From Candidatus Latescibacterota bacterium (GTDB taxonomy: Bacteria > Latescibacterota > UBA2968 > UBA8231), in assembly GCA_965208105.1 (NCBI GenBank), contig OZ242318.1, forward strand, positions 4,704,001 through 4,768,000: a DNA stretch of 64,000 nucleotides. The letters are read 5' to 3'. The position numbers were made by a program, and so were the translations under genes. The stretch's first letter is position 1; every line of letters begins with the position of its first letter. Under the pieces are notes generated by a model. The model saw only the letters and a program-made list of their open reading frames with translations, made no database searches and was not told where the DNA came from. Of this stretch, positions 9,983 to 19,608 are shown piece by piece.

Positions 9983-10486
9983 ATGTACCCGCTACGCAGA
10001 TGGATCCGCGCCGCGCTGTGTCTCCTCCTCGTGGCGGGGTGCACCCCTCACCCAATCTACCGGGATGAGCAGGGCCAGGGGCCGCGCAAATCGTCATCCT
10101 CGCCGGCCAGGTCCTCCAGGAACTCAGCCAAACCCCCTCGGCCTGCGGCGCATCCCGTCGACTTCGACAAGGTTTCCACCAAAAACGCCTACCAGATCGG
10201 ACTGGCCTCCTACTACGGCAAGAAGTTCCACGGCCGCAAGACGGCCAATGGCGAGACCTTCAACATGTACAAGCTGAGCGCCGCGCACCGGGTGCTGCCC
10301 CTGGGTACCATGATCAAGGTGACCAACCTGGAAAACGGACGCTGGGTGGAGGTCAAGGTGAACGACCGGGGCCCCTTCGTCGAAGGCAGGATTCTGGACC
10401 TTTCCTTCGCCGCCGGGCTGGAGCTGGAGATGGTGAAGAGTGGCACGGCCAAGGTGATGATCGAGATCACCCGGGCGGTGGACTAG
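9983..10486 (+). CDS. rlpA: RlpA-family lytic transglycosylase lipoprotein (DPBB domain, no SPOR domain)
   Basis: Lipobox LVAGC; GLASYYG..FHGRKTANGE, AAHRVLPLGT, VNDRGPF, ILDLS. Confidence 0.9.
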   Translation: MYPLRRWIRAALCLLLVAGCTPHPIYRDEQGQGPRKSSSSPARSSRNSAKPPRPAAHPVDFDKVSTKNAYQIGLASYYGKKFHGRKTANGETFNMYKLSAAHRVLPLGTMIKVTNLENGRWVEVKVNDRGPFVEGRILDLSFAAGLELEMVKSGTAKVMIEITRAVD

Positions 10487-10646
10487 GTGCGGTGGGGCGG
10501 GACATCCCCGGGGTCCGGGAGGTGTTACCCGGAGAGGCCGGGTGTGTGTCGTGCCTTACACATGGGTGGGGAAGGCAGGGGGGCGTAGAACGACTCTCAG
10601 AGGGATGCGGGTATGGAAAGACGGCATTCACCCTGCCCAATCGATG

Positions 10647-11053
10647 GTCAAGTCCTGAGATTTCTGCAAAAGTGATGGCAGCACGAAGCCCCCTTCCTAC
10701 CCGGCCACCGCCCTCCTTTGGGTAGCCGGTTCGATCTTCAACTCCTGGTATAAGAGATCCAGCTGGGCCCTCTCCGTCGCCGTGATCCCGATGCGCTGCC
10801 AGGTACCGGCCGCCCGGATCAGGGTAGCGTGGACGAGCTTGAGACAGCTCTTCTCGTTGAAGAAGCGGGGTATGGTTTTGGTAACCCGTCGCTCTTCCAC
10901 GAAACTGCGTTCAATCAGGTTGGTGGTACGTACGTATTTTCGATGGCGCCAGGGCACGCGCAGGTGGTTGAGAAGGGCCTCCAGATCCTCGCTGAGCACG
11001 GCGCACAGGCTTGGACAATCCTCAGGCAGCTTCGTTGCCCGGGTCCGAACCAA
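10647..11053 (-). mobile_element. IS256-family remnant: transposase C-terminal fragment (10697-~11040) plus putative right end
   Basis: RTTNLIERSFVEERR...IPRFFNEKSCLKLV is typical of Mutator/IS256 transposase C-termini; IR-like TTTTGCAGAAATCTCAGGACTTGAC downstream; N-terminal part absent. Confidence 0.8.
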
Positions 11054-11339
11054 GCAGGATCCAGATCACCTTGTTCACTCTAATAATCTCAGAGGCCGGT
11101 GGTTAGCACCCTCGAATGCAGCCCGAATGGATTCATCTCCAACTCTCCGGAGAATTGGGCGAAGCAAGATAAAAGGAAGAAAAGATGATATGAGGTAATG
11201 AGAGGGTGGATGGCCTTCGGTCCCATTGCCTGCTGAGGGCACAATTCTTGCTGAAAAAGGGAAGCACCTCGTTTCCCCGCTCGGCGGGATCTATCCCCAA
11301 GTGCCTCGGAGGCCTTTCCACTCAACCAAGGAGAGAAAA

Positions 11340-11720
11340 ATGATCCAACTACAGAAGCGAACCCTGCAACCCTACGGACATAAGCTCGGTGTCACGGCAT
11401 ACGGCTTCGAGTTCGATGTGGATGGCTTCGTGGGTGACGCCAAGAAACTGGTAAAGGACCTTGCGAAAGGTAAAATTGAGGTCGGGAACATCAGGACAGG
11501 AGAGTCAAGAACTACATTCACAATCAACGCGGGGATCGGGCGCAGGAGCAGCAGCGATCCGGTGCATGACTATGGCGACAGCAACTGGGTCGAGTACAGC
11601 ATTGGCCCAATGAGCATCACCCATGTCAGCGCCCCCAACAGCGGCGGCAGTGGTAGCAGTGGTAGCAGTTCGCCATCGGGAGGTTATGGTTTCTCACCGA
11701 GCGACTACTACGATCGTTAA
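11340..11720 (+). CDS. putative precursor peptide/protein (126 aa) of the adjacent maturation cluster
   Basis: RBS AAGGAG before ATG 11340; leader-like MIQLQKRTLQPYGHKLGVTAY followed by G; Ser/Gly-rich tail; first gene of the cluster. Confidence 0.65.
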   Translation: MIQLQKRTLQPYGHKLGVTAYGFEFDVDGFVGDAKKLVKDLAKGKIEVGNIRTGESRTTFTINAGIGRRSSSDPVHDYGDSNWVEYSIGPMSITHVSAPNSGGSGSSGSSSPSGGYGFSPSDYYDR

Positions 11721-11834
11721 TGTTTTCCAGGTTCTTCCCGGAATTGTTGCCAGATTGAAATGAACGGAAGGTCTCCGAGGCCACCGGGGATTCGGTTAAC
11801 ACTCTGCCCATAACCGTCCGGGATCGAGGCAAAT

Positions 11835-12557
11835 ATGCGTAACTCAACCGCCACACCCTGGCCCGCGAGCACGGATATAGGGTTCGTAAGAGGCCTGATC
11901 ATCGCGGCCTTCTTTCTGGTAAGCCTTCCCCTCCTCGAGGTGATCGTTGTCAACTTGGCTGGCACAGGATATATCATCGATACCCTGGAAGGAGCGGCGA
12001 TTATCTTGCCGGTCCATATTTTCAGCCTTTTTATGGTGGGATTCGTCGTGCAGAGGTGGGGAGGTATTCACTTCAAATCCCTGTTCCGCCGCCTTCCTAA
12101 CTTGAGGGAAGGCATAAAATGGGGTTCGGTCGGCGCGCTACTCGGATCAACGATGTTTTTTAAGGCGCTGAATTCCGGGTACCGGTTCGACAATCCGGAG
12201 GCCAACATCATGGTTTTGGTTCTGCTTGTAAAAGTCTCCCTGATCACCCCACTTGTCGAGGAAATCAAATATCGCGCGGTTTTCTACGCCGCCTTGCGCA
12301 AGAAGGGCAGGATCATCGCCTATGCGGTTTCGTCGCTGGTGTTTACCCTCGCCCACGCCCCGTCCTACGGCGATCTGTTCTTGCACGGATCCATGGGTCT
12401 TTCCGGTGGACAGATCGCTGGGCTCCTGCTCGCAGGCCTGGTCTTCGCTCATATCTATGAAACCACCGGCAAGCTGCTGGTCTGTGTCCTGTGCCACGCC
12501 ATGATCAACGGCATGGAGGTAATCGGCTACCTGGCAGGCTATTTGTTCGATGTGTGA
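11835..12557 (+). CDS. CPBP (CAAX/Abi) family intramembrane glutamic endopeptidase
   Basis: Multi-TM protein; motifs PLVEEIKYR, FTLAH and HAMIN. Confidence 0.88.
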   Translation: MRNSTATPWPASTDIGFVRGLIIAAFFLVSLPLLEVIVVNLAGTGYIIDTLEGAAIILPVHIFSLFMVGFVVQRWGGIHFKSLFRRLPNLREGIKWGSVGALLGSTMFFKALNSGYRFDNPEANIMVLVLLVKVSLITPLVEEIKYRAVFYAALRKKGRIIAYAVSSLVFTLAHAPSYGDLFLHGSMGLSGGQIAGLLLAGLVFAHIYETTGKLLVCVLCHAMINGMEVIGYLAGYLFDV

Positions 12558-12786
12558 AGCTTCCTTATTGTGGGATCCCACAATCTTCGGCGGTATCCTG
12601 TCTCCTCCCTCCAAATTGGGCATCCTCGCCTGACCTCGATTCCGGATCGCTGAGTCAAACCGAGACCCCAGGTCTTACCTAGCGGGATTACCCGACGGGG
12701 ACCAGACCGCGTGAAGTGTCGGGTATAGAATTTGCCGCTTTCTGCTCAACTCCAATCGAATCTACCGGGTGCCCTGGTACGTGTCT

Positions 12787-14502
12787 ATGAACCAAATCCT
12801 GCAGATTGTTCGACTCCTGCGGCCCTACTGGCGCTTCATTGCACAATCTCTGCTGGTAGGAGTCATGCTGACCTTCCTGAGTTTACCGGGGCCATTTATC
12901 ACCAAGCTCCTGATTGACGAAGTTTTCCCTCACAGAGATTACTCCTTGCTCTATTTCGTCCTGATCATGGGTGCGGTTTTCGCGGCGTTCACGGGGTTGA
13001 CCAGCTTCATGAGCGGCTATTTCAGTCAATGCGTAAGTACGAAAATGAGCTTTGATTTCGAGACGGATTTCTACAGCCATATCCAGTCCCTGGATTTCAG
13101 TTTTTTCGACCAGAGGGAGACAGGGGAAATCATGGCCAGGTTCGGAGACATGCAAAGTTCCATATTCAGCATGATTAGGATTGTAAATACCCTGGTAATG
13201 AATTGTCTGCAGTTGATGATATTTCCTCTCATTCTCTTCTACATCAACTGGAAGTTGGCTTTGATAAGTCTGGCAGTACTGCCCTTCGATACCCTCCTGG
13301 TGGCAATCACCAAGAAACATATCCGCAATCTGTCGAAGCGGATTGCCGAGCGTTCTGCCGAGATGTCGGCAAAAACATTCGAATCGCTGTCGGGGATTCG
13401 AACTGTCCAGGCGCTAGGTGTGGAGAGGATCTTTTTCAACAAGATTTTTGAAATCTTCAAGGAAGTGTCGAATCTCCGGCTCAAATTGTCCCTTGTGCAA
13501 AACGGTTCGGGATTTGCCGCGAATCTATTCAAAGCGGCGGGGAGTATGGCCTATGGCTGGTATGGATGGACCCAGATTTTACAGGGAAATTTGTCGCTGG
13601 GAAGCTTCATGGCGTTTTCCGGGTATGTCGGATTTCTCTACGGGCCCATAGAAAACCTGATTGGAATTCTCCCCCTTCTCGAGACAACGAAGGTTCACCT
13701 CAATCGTTTTTTTGAGATCTATAATTTGCGTCCGGCGATTCAGAATCGTCTGAATATGCCCGTTCTGCAACGCGTGCAAGGGGAAATCGAGTTCAGCGAA
13801 GTAAGTTTCTCCTACGATGAGCGCCAAAGGATTCTCCATCGGGTCAACCTGGAAATCCCCCCACGTACCATGATCGCCCTCGTAGGCAGGAGCGGATCCG
13901 GGAAATCCACTCTGGCCAAGCTGATTCCAAGGTTCTACGACCCCGATGAAGGGCAGGTTCGCATAGATGGAAAGGATATCCAGAAATTCCAGCTCAACTC
14001 GCTGCGCCGGCAGGTTGGGTTTTCCATGCAGGGAACCCCCCTTTTCCAGGGGAGTATTCTGGATAACCTGACCTTCGGAAGGAACATTCCAGTGCAGGAC
14101 GTGGAAGATGCGGCTCGATCAGCCTATATCCACGATTTCGTGAATTCCTTGGCGGATGGCTACGATACCCTGGTGGGCGAGCAGGGGGCCAAGTTGTCGG
14201 AAGGACAGAAACAGCGCATCGCTCTTGCCCGTGTTTGGTTGCTTGATGTCCCAATTCTGATACTGGACGAACCCACCGCGGCTCTGGACCTGGAATCAGA
14301 ATTTTTCATACAGGAAGCCCTCAAAAGGGTACGGAAAAATCGAACAGTCGTCATAATCGCACACCGGCTCTCGACCATCCAAAGCGCAGACGAGATAGTT
14401 GTACTGGATGATGGCAGGATATCCGAGAGGGGAACCCACGGGGAGTTGTTGCAAAACGGCGAAGGGTACTCTCAGCTCTTCAGCCGAATGGCAAGTATTT
14501 GA
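12787..14502 (+). CDS. ABC exporter, fused permease/ATPase (no C39 peptidase domain)
   Basis: N-terminal TM domain; Walker A GRSGSGKST, signature LSEGQKQR, ILILDEPT, IAHRLST. Confidence 0.93.
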   Translation: MNQILQIVRLLRPYWRFIAQSLLVGVMLTFLSLPGPFITKLLIDEVFPHRDYSLLYFVLIMGAVFAAFTGLTSFMSGYFSQCVSTKMSFDFETDFYSHIQSLDFSFFDQRETGEIMARFGDMQSSIFSMIRIVNTLVMNCLQLMIFPLILFYINWKLALISLAVLPFDTLLVAITKKHIRNLSKRIAERSAEMSAKTFESLSGIRTVQALGVERIFFNKIFEIFKEVSNLRLKLSLVQNGSGFAANLFKAAGSMAYGWYGWTQILQGNLSLGSFMAFSGYVGFLYGPIENLIGILPLLETTKVHLNRFFEIYNLRPAIQNRLNMPVLQRVQGEIEFSEVSFSYDERQRILHRVNLEIPPRTMIALVGRSGSGKSTLAKLIPRFYDPDEGQVRIDGKDIQKFQLNSLRRQVGFSMQGTPLFQGSILDNLTFGRNIPVQDVEDAARSAYIHDFVNSLADGYDTLVGEQGAKLSEGQKQRIALARVWLLDVPILILDEPTAALDLESEFFIQEALKRVRKNRTVVIIAHRLSTIQSADEIVVLDDGRISERGTHGELLQNGEGYSQLFSRMASI

Positions 14503-14538
14503 ACTGAAGGGAGGAAAGAAAAAATCGAAAGAATCAGT

Positions 14539-16536
14539 TTGAGTCGTCTGACTGGCCGCGATGTCAAGGTCGCGATTGTGGACAGCGGCATTGATGCTTC
14601 GCACCCGAAAGTCGGTTTGGTAGCTGGAGGACTGGCGCTGTGGTCCGCCCCGAATGGGGGAACTGCCTCGGGAGGGGATTGGTCGGACTGCACCGGCCAT
14701 GGAACAGCCTGCGCCGGTATTGTCCGCAAGAAAGCTCCGGAATCCGAAATGTACAGCGTCCGCATTTTCGACGAAACCTTGTCGACCGATGGCACATCAC
14801 TAGTGGCTGCTCTGGAATGGACGATTTCAAAAGAAATGGACGTGGTGAATTTGAGCCTGGGAAGCACCGGCCTGAGCCAAAGGGAAGACCTGAGGGCAGT
14901 CTGTCGTCAGGCGGCAAAGGCCGGAATTGTCCTTGTTGCAGCCGAGCACAATGCGGGCAGAGAAAGCTATCCGGCCGTGTTTCCGGAAGTAATAGGAGTC
15001 AGTGGAGGATGGGTTCAGGGGGCCTACGGCTACTACTACCGTTCGGAAGAGGCCATCGAATGCGTGGCCAGGGGCAACCACCAGCGCGTATGCTGGTTGA
15101 ACCGAGGTGAAATCATGATCGAGGGGACGAGCTTCGCCGCAGCCCATATTTCGGGGATTGTATGCTTGATTCGCGAAGCATTACCCGGGGCTACGGTGGA
15201 GAAAGTGCGCGAGGTTCTGCAGGCAAACGCTCTGCCTGAAATTTCCAACCATAGCGCCGGTGTGGGACAATCTTCGCCACCGCCTGCTCAGCGGAAGCTC
15301 GTTCAGGCTTCCCGGTCAGAGGCCAAATCTGCCATCAGGTGGATCCGGAAGGCGGCAATCTATCCATTCAACAAGGAGATGCATGCCCTGGTTCGATATC
15401 GAGACTTGCTCAGCTTTGAACTGGTTGGCGTCGCCGATCCGGTAGGAAAGGGGCTGGTAGGCAAGGACGCCGGGGAAGCCATGGGGATTTCTTCTGCGGG
15501 CATCAGAATTCAGCCGAGGCTCTCCTCTGCCCTTCGGGGGGCCGACACCCTTATTCTCGGCTACGTCGACCAACTCAGCCGCATCGGCAAAAAGGACATG
15601 TTGCGCGAGGCGGTCCGCCTCGCTTTGGATCAAGGCTGCCACGTCTTCAGTTTCGTCTCCCTTCCTCGAGACGTCTACGCGGACCTCCATGATCTCGCGG
15701 CGGGAAAAGGATTGCGCCTCACCTATCCATCCGTCGATTACGAGGAGGTCCGGGATGCCCTGGTCTCCGGTCAGAAATCCAGCCCCGTCGACGTTCCGGT
15801 GGTAGGGGTGTTCGGAACCAGCTCTCAACAGGGAAAATTCACCCTGCAACTGGCCCTGCGCCGCCGCCTCCTGCGCCTGGGATACAAGGTCGGTCAGATT
15901 GGCACCGAACATCACTCAGCACTTTTCGGCATGGATTTCGCATTTCCCATGGGGTATGCTTCACCTCTGGATTTGCCAATCCAGTGGCATGTACCCTATC
16001 TGGACTACAAAATGCGGCAGATATGTGGGCAACGAAGGCCCGACCTCATTCTGGTCGGTTCGCAGTCCGGTACCATCCCCTATGACGTGCATGAGCACGG
16101 GGCTCATTCCATGGCCTCGGTCTCGTTCCTTCTGGGCACCAAGCCCGATGCATGTATATTGGTGGTCAACAGCATCGATGCGGACCGCTACGTTGAGGAC
16201 AGCATGGATGCCATCCGCGCCCTGGCCAAGGCCCCCACTTTGCTTCTGGCCATGAGCGACAAGAAAAAGCATATCATGGCGGCGTACGGACGTAGTTGGG
16301 TTGCGCCGCGCCAGATGAGGGGGGCGGAAATCGCGGCAAAGCTGGGCTACCTGGAAGACAGGTTCGGCTTGCCAGCCATTGAAATCTCCTCCGTTCAGGG
16401 CCAGCGAATAGTTGCTGCGGAGGTCCTTCGGTATTTTGCTTCCTCGAAAAAGGCGGGTTGTAAGCGGGGCCTCACCCGGATTCACCGGCCTCGTTGGAAA
16501 AGAGATGAAACAACCCTAAAGTCAAGGTTTCCTTAA
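14539..16536 (+). CDS. S8 (subtilisin-like) peptidase fused to a DUF1611 / TIGR04066-like domain
   Basis: Catalytic triad VDSGID, GHGTACAG, GTSFAA; C-terminal Rossmann-like part plus VGVFGTSSQQGKFT and QIGTE; no signal peptide. Confidence 0.82.
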   Translation: MSRLTGRDVKVAIVDSGIDASHPKVGLVAGGLALWSAPNGGTASGGDWSDCTGHGTACAGIVRKKAPESEMYSVRIFDETLSTDGTSLVAALEWTISKEMDVVNLSLGSTGLSQREDLRAVCRQAAKAGIVLVAAEHNAGRESYPAVFPEVIGVSGGWVQGAYGYYYRSEEAIECVARGNHQRVCWLNRGEIMIEGTSFAAAHISGIVCLIREALPGATVEKVREVLQANALPEISNHSAGVGQSSPPPAQRKLVQASRSEAKSAIRWIRKAAIYPFNKEMHALVRYRDLLSFELVGVADPVGKGLVGKDAGEAMGISSAGIRIQPRLSSALRGADTLILGYVDQLSRIGKKDMLREAVRLALDQGCHVFSFVSLPRDVYADLHDLAAGKGLRLTYPSVDYEEVRDALVSGQKSSPVDVPVVGVFGTSSQQGKFTLQLALRRRLLRLGYKVGQIGTEHHSALFGMDFAFPMGYASPLDLPIQWHVPYLDYKMRQICGQRRPDLILVGSQSGTIPYDVHEHGAHSMASVSFLLGTKPDACILVVNSIDADRYVEDSMDAIRALAKAPTLLLAMSDKKKHIMAAYGRSWVAPRQMRGAEIAAKLGYLEDRFGLPAIEISSVQGQRIVAAEVLRYFASSKKAGCKRGLTRIHRPRWKRDETTLKSRFP

Positions 16537-16548
16537 AGGGAGGGGTAA

Positions 16549-16836
16549 ATGGGAAAAGAAGGCACAGAGTATCGCATCAAGCGCACCATCGTCCGTACCC
16601 TGAATCTCGACATCGAGCCCGATGAAATCGGTGACGATGATTTGTTGTTCGGCGGCGACCTCGGTCTGCACTCCATGGCGGCGATGGAAATCATTGTCGG
16701 ACTGGAGGAGGAATTCAGCTTTGAGGTTTCGGACGATGATCTGAGAGTCGAGTTACTGAACAGTGTTCGCTCGATGAGCGAATACATTGAATCAACCCTT
16801 TCAGATTCCTCCGCCATGCGGGTGAAGGACCCTTGA
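16549..16836 (+). CDS. acyl carrier protein
   Basis: Acidic 95-aa protein; GDLGLHS(42)MAAMEIIVGLEEEF phosphopantetheine site; strong RBS GGGAGG. Confidence 0.88.
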   Translation: MGKEGTEYRIKRTIVRTLNLDIEPDEIGDDDLLFGGDLGLHSMAAMEIIVGLEEEFSFEVSDDDLRVELLNSVRSMSEYIESTLSDSSAMRVKDP

Positions 16837-16839
16837 GCC

Positions 16840-19533
16840 ATGATACCGGATATAAAGCTATTTTACGAGCCTGGATCGAGAGATTGTGCAGAAGACCTGG
16901 CGGTCTCCGTAGCCTCCTGGAAGAGGAGAAAGCACGAGCTGATGTTCGCTGAGTCATGGGGGTTTGGTTTTGACCCACCTGGTTCGGGCGGTGGAGAAAG
17001 AATTGGAGATGGGATCGATCCTGCAATGGGCGACCGGTGGGGATTGCTGGAGCGCCATCACGGAATAAAATGGTCGGTCGGCAAAAACCATTCTGATGAA
17101 GAACTCGCTGCTCTCTTGCAGGGGGAAATTGAAGGAGGTTTTCCGGTCGCATTGAGCCTGAGCGTGGGTGAAACGAGGAAAGAATGCAGCGCCAAGGGCG
17201 ACAGGAGTTCGCCCCTCCCCTATATCCTGGCCGTGGGGTTTGATTACAGTGCCCGGACCCTGTCTTATCTGCGATACAACACCCAATGTCCCGGTGAAGG
17301 AAACGGCGAAATAGAGCATATCTCCCTCGGTGACTTCGAGGATTGGGATGGTGGTTACATGACCGTCCGACTGACGGGAAAGGACAAGTGGCAAGAGGCC
17401 GACGGGGTTGAAGTTATTGAAAGAGCCTTGGCAAGCGTCGGCAACTTCGATGAATGCAGAAGCACCGTTTCAATCCACCAATTTGCCGATGCATTGGATC
17501 GGGGCCTTGATATAGAGGCTGAAATTGCAGGCTGCACCAACTATCACCGGGTTCCATTGTTTTACAATCTGATGCGGGTTGGCCATGGGCGCTTTCAGTT
17601 CTCCAGATTGCTGCGCCTTCTGAGCATCACTGGCCACTTCCCGGAGCTTGGGGAAGCTGCTGGCCGCTTGGAGTCCCTGGGAAGACGGTGGAATCTGGTC
17701 CGCAGCCTGTTGATGAAATTGGGGATGAGGGCGAGCGATGTTCAATTGCCGGGTCGAATCAGCACGAGAGTCAGAGAACTGGCGGCGGCTGAGGAGGAAT
17801 TGGCCTCGGTCCTGCGGGAATTCGGTTTTAGGAAGAGAAGGAACCCCTTCTCGAAAATTCGTAAAAATTCTCTCGTCCCGGAACCATCCTCTTCAGGAAT
17901 TGAAATGTATCCCCGTCCTGCACTGAAGCATCCATATGTGGGCCCTCGGGACGGGAAGGAGCGCCGCCTCGTCCATATCTGGCAGGAAGTCCTTGGCGTC
18001 CGAAAGGTTGGTGTTCACGACGACTTCTTTGAGTTGGGCGGGGACTCCTTGCTGGGGATCCATGTTGTTGCCCTTGTCCGTAAGGCAGGGTTGCAACTGA
18101 CTACCGGACAGCTTTTCGAACGCCGGACAATCGCAGGATTGGCCCAGGTTGAAGGGAAGGGGACCTGGATTTGCGCTGAGCAGGATCTGGTGACAGGTCC
18201 TGTACCCATCACACCCGGTGCGCGCCGGTTCCTGGAGCATATCGGTCCCGGCAGACACCACTACAACGTGTCTGTTCTCCTGGAGACGCCAGACGGCTTC
18301 GACCCCGGACGAATGGACCAGGCCGTGCGCCATGTGGTCGCCCATCACGATGCCCTCCGATTTCGTTATTTCCATGACGGCAGGACGGGATGGCGGCAGT
18401 ACATGGCCGGGCTTGATGGGCCAAATCATTTCACCATTACAGATCTGAGCGGCATTCCCAGGGCGGGGCAAAGTGCCGCAATTGAAGAGGCTGCGGCCGA
18501 AGTACAGGCCAGCCTGAACCTGTCCCGGGGACCCTTATGCCGGGTGACCTTTTTCGATCTTGGGGATCACCGTCGCGGGCGCCTGTTATTTGTCGTACAC
18601 CACATTGCCGTGGATGGGATGTGCGAGCGCTTTCCCCTGGAGGACCTTCTTTTGGTCTACCAGCAGCTTTGCGCAGGCGATGAGGTCCGGATGCCTCCAA
18701 AGACAACCTCATTCAAGCGATGGGCAATTGGTCTGGAGAAATACGCCCGTTCGGAGGCCTTGAAGAAGGAGGCAGATTATTGGCTGAGCTTGCCCTGGGA
18801 TCAGGTGCGTCCCTTTCCCCTGGATAATGCAGAAGGAGTGAACAGCCGAGCCTCTTCATCCTTCATAGAAATTACCATATCCCCAGAAAAGACGCACACC
18901 TTACTGTCAGTTCCCAGGAAGTCGACCACCAGGGTCCACGAGGTGTTGCTGACAGCGCTCGCTCTGGCCCTCTCACGATGGACCGGATCGGATACCGTAT
19001 TGGTAGACCTGATGCATCATGGACGCGAGCCGCTTTTCGACCACATGGACCTGTCTCGCACGGTGGGCAATTTCATCTCCCATGTTCCGGTAGTACTGAA
19101 ACTGGGGAACGCATCCCCTGCTTCACAGGCGGTGGAAATGGTCAAAGAGCAACTTCGCAAAATTCCCAGGGGAGGCATCGGGTATGGTTTGCTGCGGTAT
19201 AGGTGTGGGGATACTGAGGAAAACGAAAAATTGCGAAGCTGCCCAAAGGCCGAGATCAGCTTCAACTGCCGGATTCACGGGGCTCGGACATTGCCGGCTA
19301 ATCAGGGTCATCTGGCCGCTGGATCTTTTCAACCAGCCATGGAATCCTGCGGTCCCCCTATCGCCCAGGATGCAATCAGGGGCCATCTGATCGGATTCAG
19401 AGCCGACATCATTAACGGCCGGGCAAACCTCGGCTTCACCTACAGCGCGGCGTTGCAAAGGGGATCTACGGTCGAAGCTCTGACCCATGGCTGTATGGAG
19501 GAGTTGGACTCGCTCCTCGGCCGTCTTCATTGA
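16840..19533 (+). CDS. BtrH-like N-terminal domain + carrier (T) domain + epimerisation-type condensation-superfamily domain
   Basis: DC...MFAESWGFGF and YILAVGFD (BtrH_N-like); DDFFELGGDS(403)L; HHIAVDG, HHGRE, SRTVG, PRGGIGYGLLRY. Confidence 0.78.
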   Translation: MIPDIKLFYEPGSRDCAEDLAVSVASWKRRKHELMFAESWGFGFDPPGSGGGERIGDGIDPAMGDRWGLLERHHGIKWSVGKNHSDEELAALLQGEIEGGFPVALSLSVGETRKECSAKGDRSSPLPYILAVGFDYSARTLSYLRYNTQCPGEGNGEIEHISLGDFEDWDGGYMTVRLTGKDKWQEADGVEVIERALASVGNFDECRSTVSIHQFADALDRGLDIEAEIAGCTNYHRVPLFYNLMRVGHGRFQFSRLLRLLSITGHFPELGEAAGRLESLGRRWNLVRSLLMKLGMRASDVQLPGRISTRVRELAAAEEELASVLREFGFRKRRNPFSKIRKNSLVPEPSSSGIEMYPRPALKHPYVGPRDGKERRLVHIWQEVLGVRKVGVHDDFFELGGDSLLGIHVVALVRKAGLQLTTGQLFERRTIAGLAQVEGKGTWICAEQDLVTGPVPITPGARRFLEHIGPGRHHYNVSVLLETPDGFDPGRMDQAVRHVVAHHDALRFRYFHDGRTGWRQYMAGLDGPNHFTITDLSGIPRAGQSAAIEEAAAEVQASLNLSRGPLCRVTFFDLGDHRRGRLLFVVHHIAVDGMCERFPLEDLLLVYQQLCAGDEVRMPPKTTSFKRWAIGLEKYARSEALKKEADYWLSLPWDQVRPFPLDNAEGVNSRASSSFIEITISPEKTHTLLSVPRKSTTRVHEVLLTALALALSRWTGSDTVLVDLMHHGREPLFDHMDLSRTVGNFISHVPVVLKLGNASPASQAVEMVKEQLRKIPRGGIGYGLLRYRCGDTEENEKLRSCPKAEISFNCRIHGARTLPANQGHLAAGSFQPAMESCGPPIAQDAIRGHLIGFRADIINGRANLGFTYSAALQRGSTVEALTHGCMEELDSLLGRLH

Positions 19534-19608
19534 ATCCCAGCGATCAGATCCCCTCGATGAGTTCAATTCAATACCTGGAGATGGTGGGTTGTCAGGTCCC
19601 CGCCCTCC

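Follow-up and report, generated by a model that had tools for sequence, protein, structure and literature searches.

A leader-bearing small protein beside an S8–DUF1611 fusion enzyme in Candidatus Latescibacterota: a probable long-core relative of the CLI_3235/TIGR04066 peptide maturation system

The 64,000-nucleotide stretch of a Candidatus Latescibacterota genome that is considered here (contig OZ242318.1, positions 4,704,001 to 4,768,000; "the window" in what follows) encodes, at 11340-11720 on its forward strand, a 126-residue protein that is read directly from the sequence to be free of cysteine. The analysis supports its N-terminus as a leader tied to a family of enzymes in which an S8 (subtilisin-type) protease domain is fused to a DUF1611 domain: the leader is the only part that the window protein has in common with at least 17 other, unrelated subfamilies of small proteins encoded beside homologous S8–DUF1611 genes. 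The hallmarks of precursors of RiPPs (peptides made by the ribosome and then post-translationally modified) are present: a conserved leader, a variable core, and a dedicated protease and exporter alongside. Judged from sequence, the gene probably specifies the ribosomal precursor of a leader-guided system in which the S8 domain serves as leader protease; that carrier-dependent capping chemistry is then performed on the core is a more tentative proposition, somewhere between doubtful and possible. The whole can be thought of as a long-core relative of the CLI_3235/TIGR04066 mode of peptide maturation.

The evidence for the leader comes from 42 loci (628,905 nucleotides): 40 S8–DUF1611 loci whose enzymes are 26-62% identical, the window stretch, and its syntenic counterpart in a second species (L002, from a Candidatus Latescibacterota metagenome-assembled genome). 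A regular expression for such N-termini, proposed by an earlier, sequence-only reading of the window and used unchanged, finds a single match when the 4,846,116-nucleotide genome is translated in all six frames, namely the gene itself, and seven in the 42 loci, all of them on the strand of the enzyme and upstream of it, in open reading frames (ORFs) of 107-136 residues whose remaining sequence is unrelated. That reading had staked itself in advance on the leader being conserved next to homologous S8–DUF1611 genes, and such conservation is what is found. The small ORFs of these loci yield a wider pattern: M-x-x-L-x-K-[PRK], often with a Tyr some five residues on, and then [VI]-x-A-Y. A profile built from 25 leaders and applied with a threshold of 18 bits scores its members at 22.8-40.6 bits, a left-out homologue at 18.7 bits and the best non-self segment of the window's own genome at 14.5 bits; 23 of the 42 loci contain a match at or above threshold.

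Whole genomes tell the same story. Searched against five other genomes that carry several enzyme copies, a 22-row leader alignment gives 14 matches (E <= 1.6e-5), every one of them on the same strand as, and within ~10.3 kb of, an S8–DUF1611 gene; five of these lie outside the training set. Two weak matches (E ~0.3) are also just upstream of enzyme copies, and the sole other weak match (E 0.93) is inside a 943-residue ORF. The suggestion that the leader may be a portable tag on other proteins of the same genome does not survive, the regular expression and the profile alike finding only this gene in 4.85 Mb; the tag's portability, seen across the phylum, is limited to paralogous S8–DUF1611 loci.

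What the leaders precede is very diverse. The cores are unrelated to one another, range from 49 to 116 residues, are free of cysteine in 12 of 26 cases, and come in three kinds: short and Cys-rich; hydrophobic and Gly/Ala-rich; and, as in the window, long, acidic or Ser/Thr/Gly-rich, and Cys-free. (One locus, L054, has three tandem precursors of 71-75 residues, with hydrophobic four-Cys cores, at 400-1400.) No Pfam family is matched above cut-off by 12 long cores and relatives; a single sub-threshold match reaches 17.7 bits. By this comparison a long Cys-free core is normal for Latescibacterota rather than an oddity.

Where the enzyme might act within the leader is suggested by the pattern of conservation. 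When 18 subfamily representatives are anchored on the Tyr, the residue at P4 is V or I in 17 of them, A occupies P2 in 14 and Y occupies P1 in 17; at P1' there is H, S, G, E, A or D, and at P3' there is E in 13 cases and D in 2. Conservation is limited to M-x-x-L-x-K and to [VI]-x-A-Y-x-x-E, the other positions carrying little information. The dominant S1 and S4 pockets of subtilisin BPN' have a preference for large hydrophobic residues. Since the motif fits these preferences, and since the S8 domain models with high confidence as a near counterpart of BPN' (template-modelling (TM) score 0.72 by target, ~30% identity), V18-T19-A20-Y21 as P4-P1, with the cut before G22, is the best and a plausible reading of the site. 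For the pairing of leader and enzyme that the sequence-only reading had proposed to model, structure prediction gives a weak score: the complex of S8–DUF1611 with precursor residues 1-50 has an interface score (ipSAE) of 0.51 (0.45, 0.51 and 0.51 in separate runs), against 0.00 for the best of three controls. At least 67% of contacts are common to the runs, the partner has a pLDDT (model confidence) of at least 48, and the result is graded as weak support. (Of 157 solved complexes 116 attain the mark used in this grading, as do 2 of 215 mismatched pairs; only 18 of the 157, together with both mismatches, do so at 0.60 or under.)

The enzyme, encoded at 14539-16536 (+), joins an S8 subtilisin domain (residues 1-235) to a DUF1611/TIGR04066-like P-loop domain (residues ~268-640). 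Protease and DUF1611 are fused in 40 of 40 aligned enzymes, the catalytic triad D15/H54/S198 is invariant in the same 40, and the P-loop is conserved. The structural model (whole-protein pLDDT 84.1) matches subtilisin BPN' and 2g0t. With its catalytic Asp at residue 15 the protein has no signal peptide, for want of space, and cutting would therefore take place in the cytoplasm. The DUF1611 half scores 49 bits against Pfam DUF1611 (above the cut-off of 25) and 120.9 bits against TIGR04066 (below the cut-off of 200); a sequence search of the PDB with this half returns only 2g0t, an uncharacterized protein. DgcN is, going by its NCBIfam name, an N-acetyltransferase; a literature search on DgcN gave unrelated matches only.

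The fusion enzyme is widespread. At E <= 1e-10 it is matched in 106 of 168 genomes scanned, many of which hold several copies of full length (the weakest of the matches, near 1e-11, probably represent S8 alone), and at least 725 public protein clusters match it at E <= 1e-20; where these are named, it is only as "S8 family serine peptidase". Numerous matches in other genomes are interrupted in frame by one or two stops (TGA, TAG or TAA), which could be the mark of pseudogenes or of errors in long-read assembly. The enzyme ORFs of L054 and L069 are much longer, at 1080 and 843 residues, and may have an extra domain fused to them. Recurrent companions of the enzyme in L034-L037, L042, L043 and other loci include protein families that lack a Pfam match (clusters c4, ~340 residues; c10, ~240 residues; c21, ~210 residues), a beta-propeller-like protein, and GT28, GNAT, Yip1, MauE/DoxX and thioredoxin-like genes.

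The precursor gene itself is real. Its start had been placed by the sequence-only reading at 11340, not at the TTG at 11226, which merely lengthens the ORF, and this placement is borne out in several ways. A Shine-Dalgarno (SD) sequence, AAGGAG (11328-11333), is located 6 nucleotides 5' of the ATG. Over-extended ORFs of relatives run through this upstream DNA in one or the other of two frames until they reach MIQLQ: the upstream stretch is thus conserved as DNA and not as protein. SD-like motifs are found 4-12 nucleotides before the leader ATG in 25 of 26 leader-bearing ORFs of the related loci, against a background of 9.7% (1000 of 10341) when every ATG on that strand in the loci is counted. 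Finally, the 50 nucleotides 5' of the ATG are nearly identical to those of syntenic L002, exceeding the conservation of the coding sequence (60% amino acid identity). The syntenic copy in L002 also shows that the gene is real and that the island in which it is found is older than the split of the two species. The conserved untranslated stretch (11289-11339, +), which includes the SD sequence and, as a further observation, a near-palindrome, GCCTCGGAGGC, may be an operator or a 5' untranslated element. An Rfam scan of 10400-12000 finds nothing, and promoter and terminator scans give counts that are not above those of shuffled sequences.

The gene product begins with MIQLQKRTLQPYGHKLGVTAY and ends with an aromatic tail. 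Its leader, residues 1-21 (11340-11402, +; M-x-x-L-x-K-R ... V-T-A-Y), contains no hydrophobic run or h-region, no twin-arginine motif and no GG. A Sec or Tat signal peptide is excluded by the first two of these features, and a double-glycine leader of the kind served by C39-type ATP-binding cassette (ABC) bacteriocin exporters by the third, together with the lack of a C39 domain in the exporter encoded nearby; the description given by the sequence-only reading (no Sec h-region, no double-glycine site, a Cys-free core, an aromatic tail) can thus be read directly. The core, residues 22-126 and the stop codon (11403-11720, +), contains no known domain. Its Ser/Gly linker, correctly ascribed to DNA repeats, is encoded by a perfect 9-nucleotide tandem repeat of 2.6 copies (11647-11669, +), and linker length differs between relatives. 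The 126-residue protein matches no Pfam or NCBIfam family model. AlphaFold2, supplied with an 8-row alignment, places a helix at 27-42 and strands at 49-67 and 85-97, in line with the amphipathic segment and beta-like middle that had been proposed; the mean pLDDT is 43.7, so that these elements are weakly backed, the fold is not predictable at that confidence, and the model is too poor to serve as the basis for a fold search. The ESM Atlas offers no lead (best feature score 0.81; structure TM <= 0.35).

Relatives of the whole protein fall into nine protein clusters at 60-96% identity, and the indels in their linkers preserve the reading frame. A profile search of 1.84 billion representatives gives nine matches, the gains being two distant members (P0010 and P0013) and one leader-only fragment; only five related clusters are found for the core. 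Three large repeat proteins (P0011, P0012 and P0015) that match a short stretch many times were judged to do so on composition and were not counted as kin. Two public clusters (P0014 and P0009) join a leader of the window type to unrelated sequence; rather than new cores, they seem to be the same gene in frameshifted assemblies.

The precursor gene opens a low-GC island (GC ~0.46-0.60 over 11000-19500, compared with 0.60-0.70 in the flanks) in which the gene order is precursor–CPBP–ABC–S8/DUF1611–ACP–BtrH/PCP/E (ACP, acyl carrier protein; PCP, peptidyl carrier protein; E, epimerization-type domain); the order is the same in the second species, at the same chromosomal site. The second gene (11835-12557, +) encodes a CPBP (Rce1-like) intramembrane glutamic protease (PF02517, 1.1e-18), a candidate immunity or processing protein. 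A CPBP gene adjoins the precursor in the window and in most of the 11 loci that carry one, and in the ten CPBP-bearing loci with a stringent leader match all cores are at least 95 residues long. The third gene (12769-14502, +) encodes an ABC exporter, permease plus ATPase, that matches bacteriocin-exporter profiles (TIGR01193) only from profile position ~142 onward, the C39 peptidase domain being absent; its true start may be the ATG at 12787, because the L002 homologue begins at that later Met. HlyD, RND or MacB partners are present in many of the related loci. Two transposase-like sequences can be noted: a C-terminal fragment of a Mutator-family transposase (10697-11053, -) just 5' of the island, and, in L002, a different transposase-like ORF (11244-12014) between the CPBP and ABC genes.

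Downstream of the fusion enzyme follow two genes whose products contain carrier domains. The first (16549-16836, +) encodes a stand-alone acyl carrier protein (PF00550) whose phosphopantetheine attachment residue is Ser42; 38 of the 42 loci have a gene for a carrier protein, and the phosphopantetheine Ser is kept in 32 of 33 aligned carrier proteins. The second (16840-19533, +) encodes an 897-residue protein composed of a BtrH-like acyltransferase (residues 1-330), a PCP (376-436; PF00550) and an epimerization-type domain of the condensation family (462-893; PF00668). Over its first 330 residues it shows homology to stand-alone, acyltransferase-like BtrH_N/DUF4872 proteins of the related loci (hhalign 94.4%, E 8.7e-8, 296 columns), with its invariant Cys16 aligned to the invariant Cys of the latter. 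The condensation domain is of the epimerization type: its best solved relatives are PvdL (1e-104), GrsA (5isw, 5.3e-78) and TycA (9bfg and 2xhg, 1.8e-75 and 1.2e-57), and PCP-C chains score just 2.8e-23 to 1.3e-11; its nearest solved counterparts are PCP-E parts of single-module synthetases. GrsA and TycA are not known to contain a condensation (C) domain. The HHxxxDG motif is present in the translation as HHIAVDG (HHGRE is also found), and TIGR01720 scores 59.7 bits against the domain, below its cut-off of 74.2. The fused BtrH-like–PCP–E protein occurs in four loci (the window, L002, L053 and L067), all of them with long Cys-free cores.

Several known systems resemble parts of this assembly. 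QhpE is a cytoplasmic subtilase that takes the leader off a ribosomal precursor in the maturation of quinohemoprotein amine dehydrogenase; of the NCBIfam models it comes out closest to the S8 domain here, but the match (146 bits) is under the cut-off of 165, there is no QhpC or QhpD partner, and the S8 domain is fused to DUF1611. The use of one leader on many unrelated cores, with a dedicated protease and ABC exporter, is shared with NHLP, Nif11 and double-glycine leaders that work with C39-ABC transporters; the motif is another one, however, there is no GG site, a subtilase takes the place of C39, and the cores are up to 116 residues long. In butirosin biosynthesis BtrH transfers a carrier-bound aminoacyl group onto an amine. 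As in that side-chain transfer (BtrI carrier, BtrH acyltransferase), and as with DarH, an acyltransferase related to BtrH, a BtrH_N/DUF4872-type domain with a conserved Cys is found beside carriers in the window; the presumed acceptor would be a ribosomal protein rather than an aminoglycoside, the domain is fused to a PCP and an epimerization-type domain, and there is no BtrJ-like ligase.

The closest parallel is with the CLI_3235/CcpM system, whose members are a TIGR04065 precursor, the radical S-adenosylmethionine (SAM) enzyme CcpM (TIGR04068), TIGR04066 and TIGR04069 proteins, an S8 peptidase and an ABC transporter. A tblastn search of plasmids with the DUF1611 half brings out two relevant clusters. 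On Clostridium pasteurianum pCLOPA01 (L073) an annotated CLI_3235 family bacteriocin precursor, which starts MKLLGKKHVKVMETIEAY, stands ahead of CcpM, a TIGR04066 protein, a small carrier-like protein and an S8 peptidase, and an ABC transporter is close by; this precursor and the window protein both have M-x-x-L-x-K-K/R-type and [VI]-x-A-Y motifs, with a different spacer. Bacillus mycoides plasmid NZ_CP035996.1 (L074, 5518-8919), one of six such Bacillus plasmids matched, encodes a fused S8–DUF1611 protein, a phosphopantetheine-binding protein, a DUF692 protein and two 44-residue Gly/Cys-rich peptides that start MKKALKKPTKVGKEVEETKVTLY. Like the CLI_3235/CcpM system, the window has a small precursor in the company of a protein of DUF1611/TIGR04066 type, a carrier-like protein of small size, a subtilase and an ABC exporter. 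It differs in that S8 and DUF1611 are one polypeptide, in having no radical SAM maturase CcpM (11000-19550 holds no gene for a radical SAM enzyme), in its core of 105 residues with no Cys as against ~30 Cys-rich residues, in a carrier that keeps the Ser where the one Clostridium example has Ala, and in the addition of the BtrH-like–PCP–E and CPBP proteins.

One system of the CLI_3235 kind has been expressed: according to the part of the account available, the SacP23 cluster of Paenibacillus polymyxa (radical SAM enzyme, TIGR04066, TIGR04069, subtilase, ABC) yielded an active peptide with an m/z of 3404, compared with a predicted 4455 Da, whose N-terminus was blocked to Edman degradation (PMC10731318). 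Mass and blockage together would fit processing beyond simple leader removal. The same part of that account has the TIGR04066 protein down as "immunity", which is a guess on the part of its authors (PMC10731318).

How might these parts work together in the window? Residues 1-21 would be a recognition leader of CLI_3235 type (M-x-x-L-x-K-[KRP] ... [VI]-x-A-Y), and the cytoplasmic S8–DUF1611 fusion and the acyl carrier protein would form the core of the system. The S8 domain would bind V18-T19-A20-Y21 as P4-P1 and most likely cut between Y21 and G22; because the ABC transporter is without a C39 domain, there would be no alternative peptidase for the leader. The ~105-residue core would then probably be modified on an amine, perhaps that of its new N-terminus, with a group that the ACP or PCP carries, that the E-type domain epimerizes, and that either the BtrH-like transferase or the DUF1611 domain passes on: this is the weakest step of the proposal. 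The product would leave through the C39-less ABC exporter, and the adjacent CPBP protease might serve self-protection or make a further cut. In its most specific form the scheme has the S8 domain remove the leader, and DUF1611, the BtrH-like transferase or both add the carrier-bound group to the new N-terminus of a ~100-residue protein before export. Taken as a whole this sequence of cutting and capping is a rather doubtful conjecture. In the window island the epimerization-type domain would make this group, a D-aminoacyl unit, on the PCP, in a setting that contains no adenylation domain.

A number of observations weigh against a precursor cleaved and then capped in this way. With regard to the leader, a stringent match is missing in 19 of the 42 loci, and 18 upstream extensions of 8 kb, for loci without a match, yield none at 18 bits or more, with two plausible candidates at 13.1 and 11.6 bits. 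(The leader has no match in nine loci with enzymes at most 39% identical to that of the window (L033, L057-L062, L065 and L071), L056 being the exception in that range of identity, which suggests that those nine use a different leader.) With regard to the site, conservation within the window subfamily runs on beyond Y21 (G-F-E-F-D.DGF), and because this block and the Glu at P3' are conserved, the scissile bond could be elsewhere in it; the predicted complex, for its part, is weak in score and comes without contacts. The 105-residue core is conserved from end to end; it would be large as modified peptides go, and it presents no obvious modifiable motif, and the island encodes no adenylation domain or other known loading enzyme. 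Carrier chemistry, too, may not be general to the wider family, since the carrier-like protein of the Clostridium example (L073, 8123-8419) has Ala where the 32 other aligned carriers have Ser. The likeness to CLI_3235 is the last of these difficulties. It stands on the TIGR04066 match and on the motifs and neighbourhood in L073, and fails on the models: TIGR04065 (cut-off 26 bits) gives nothing at E <= 0.1 for the window protein and 0 of 25 leader ORFs at E <= 10, very weak matches possibly escaping the HMMER filters, and has no match in the genome; the leader profile scores the Clostridium and Bacillus peptides at a non-significant 4-5 bits (Clostridium 4.4, against a background maximum of 14.5). 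As judged from motifs and gene neighbourhood the likeness appears real, without being statistically demonstrable.

If the core is not capped, is it simply exported? The leader could be an export tag for the ABC exporter (with HlyD in relatives), the S8 domain replacing C39 and the core leaving unmodified as a small secreted protein or bacteriocin, with DUF1611, the ACP and BtrH-PCP-E making or attaching something unrelated. Abi/CPBP proteins have a role in bacteriocin immunity. The CPBP gene next to the precursor would fit an immunity gene; the missing C39 domain, the HlyD, RND or MacB partners of many related loci, and the length, diversity and frequent lack of Cys of the cores would likewise accord with export as such. 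That the protease is without exception fused to DUF1611 in the aligned enzymes speaks the other way, as does the carrier gene in all but four loci, which argues for carrier-dependent chemistry in the same process; so, too, does the blocked N-terminus of the related Paenibacillus product, as given in the available part of that account (PMC10731318). Export of an unmodified core is, all told, unlikely, and is to be taken seriously nonetheless.

Two further explanations dispense with a leader altogether. The small protein might be an uncleaved accessory factor (scaffold, regulator, immunity protein or chaperone) that docks on the enzyme via its conserved N-terminus. Conservation of the whole protein within the subfamily, beyond the leader, is what such a factor would exhibit, and its unpredictable fold and want of a family match leave room for one; but the same N-terminal motif is carried by unrelated sequences, including bacteriocin-like hydrophobic or Cys-rich peptides in tandem (the three in L054), which is the pattern of a substrate, and the Tyr with V/I at P4 and Ala at P2 matches a subtilisin site. 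An accessory role is accordingly improbable. That the ORF is non-coding or due to chance, within a mobile island, is a reading for which the low GC content and the adjoining transposase fragment might be cited; it is already contradicted by the strong SD sequence, the nine clusters at 60-96% identity, the frame-preserving linker indels and the synteny in a second species, and can hardly be credited at all. A precursor whose leader is cut by the S8 domain continues to be the probable reading.

The same genome has a second S8–DUF1611 locus, L033 (G000:C1:517475-532367; enzyme 524475-526367), whose enzyme is ~30% identical. It encodes its own carrier protein, ABC-2 permeases and a radical SAM/SPASM enzyme that resembles FlmE/OhkG (378 bits, under the cut-off of 500), and the leader profile has no match nearby. 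Its distant relatives L059, L061 and L062 carry UPF0489 genes. UPF0489 is, in the available part of one account, the peptide arginase family of orphan "DD(I/V)LF" RiPPs (PMC12703449), and the presence of these genes beside the enzyme therefore suggests a link of the fusion enzyme to arginase-containing orphan RiPP clusters; the DD[IV]LF motif is found nowhere in the loci and five times in the genome, each time inside a large ORF.

A full-text literature search found no published description of an S8–DUF1611 leader system or of a link between DUF1611 and RiPPs, and the portions of that literature available assign no function to TIGR04066 and TIGR04069 of CLI_3235 systems. The window offers a defined substrate–enzyme pair, consisting of the motif [VI]-x-A-Y-x-x-E and a fused protease–DUF1611 with intact catalytic residues, together with a carrier protein of the true kind and, which is unusual, a BtrH-like–PCP–epimerase protein that has no adenylation domain. 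Across a poorly known phylum the same leader is found on very different cargo, from Cys-rich or hydrophobic peptides of ~50 residues to acidic Cys-free proteins of ~115. If leader removal is indeed followed by capping, ribosomal and non-ribosomal chemistry would be joined on whole small proteins, DUF1611/TIGR04066 would have its first role in peptide maturation, and the Latescibacterota would hold a phylum-wide toolkit in which one leader serves dozens of unrelated cargo proteins.

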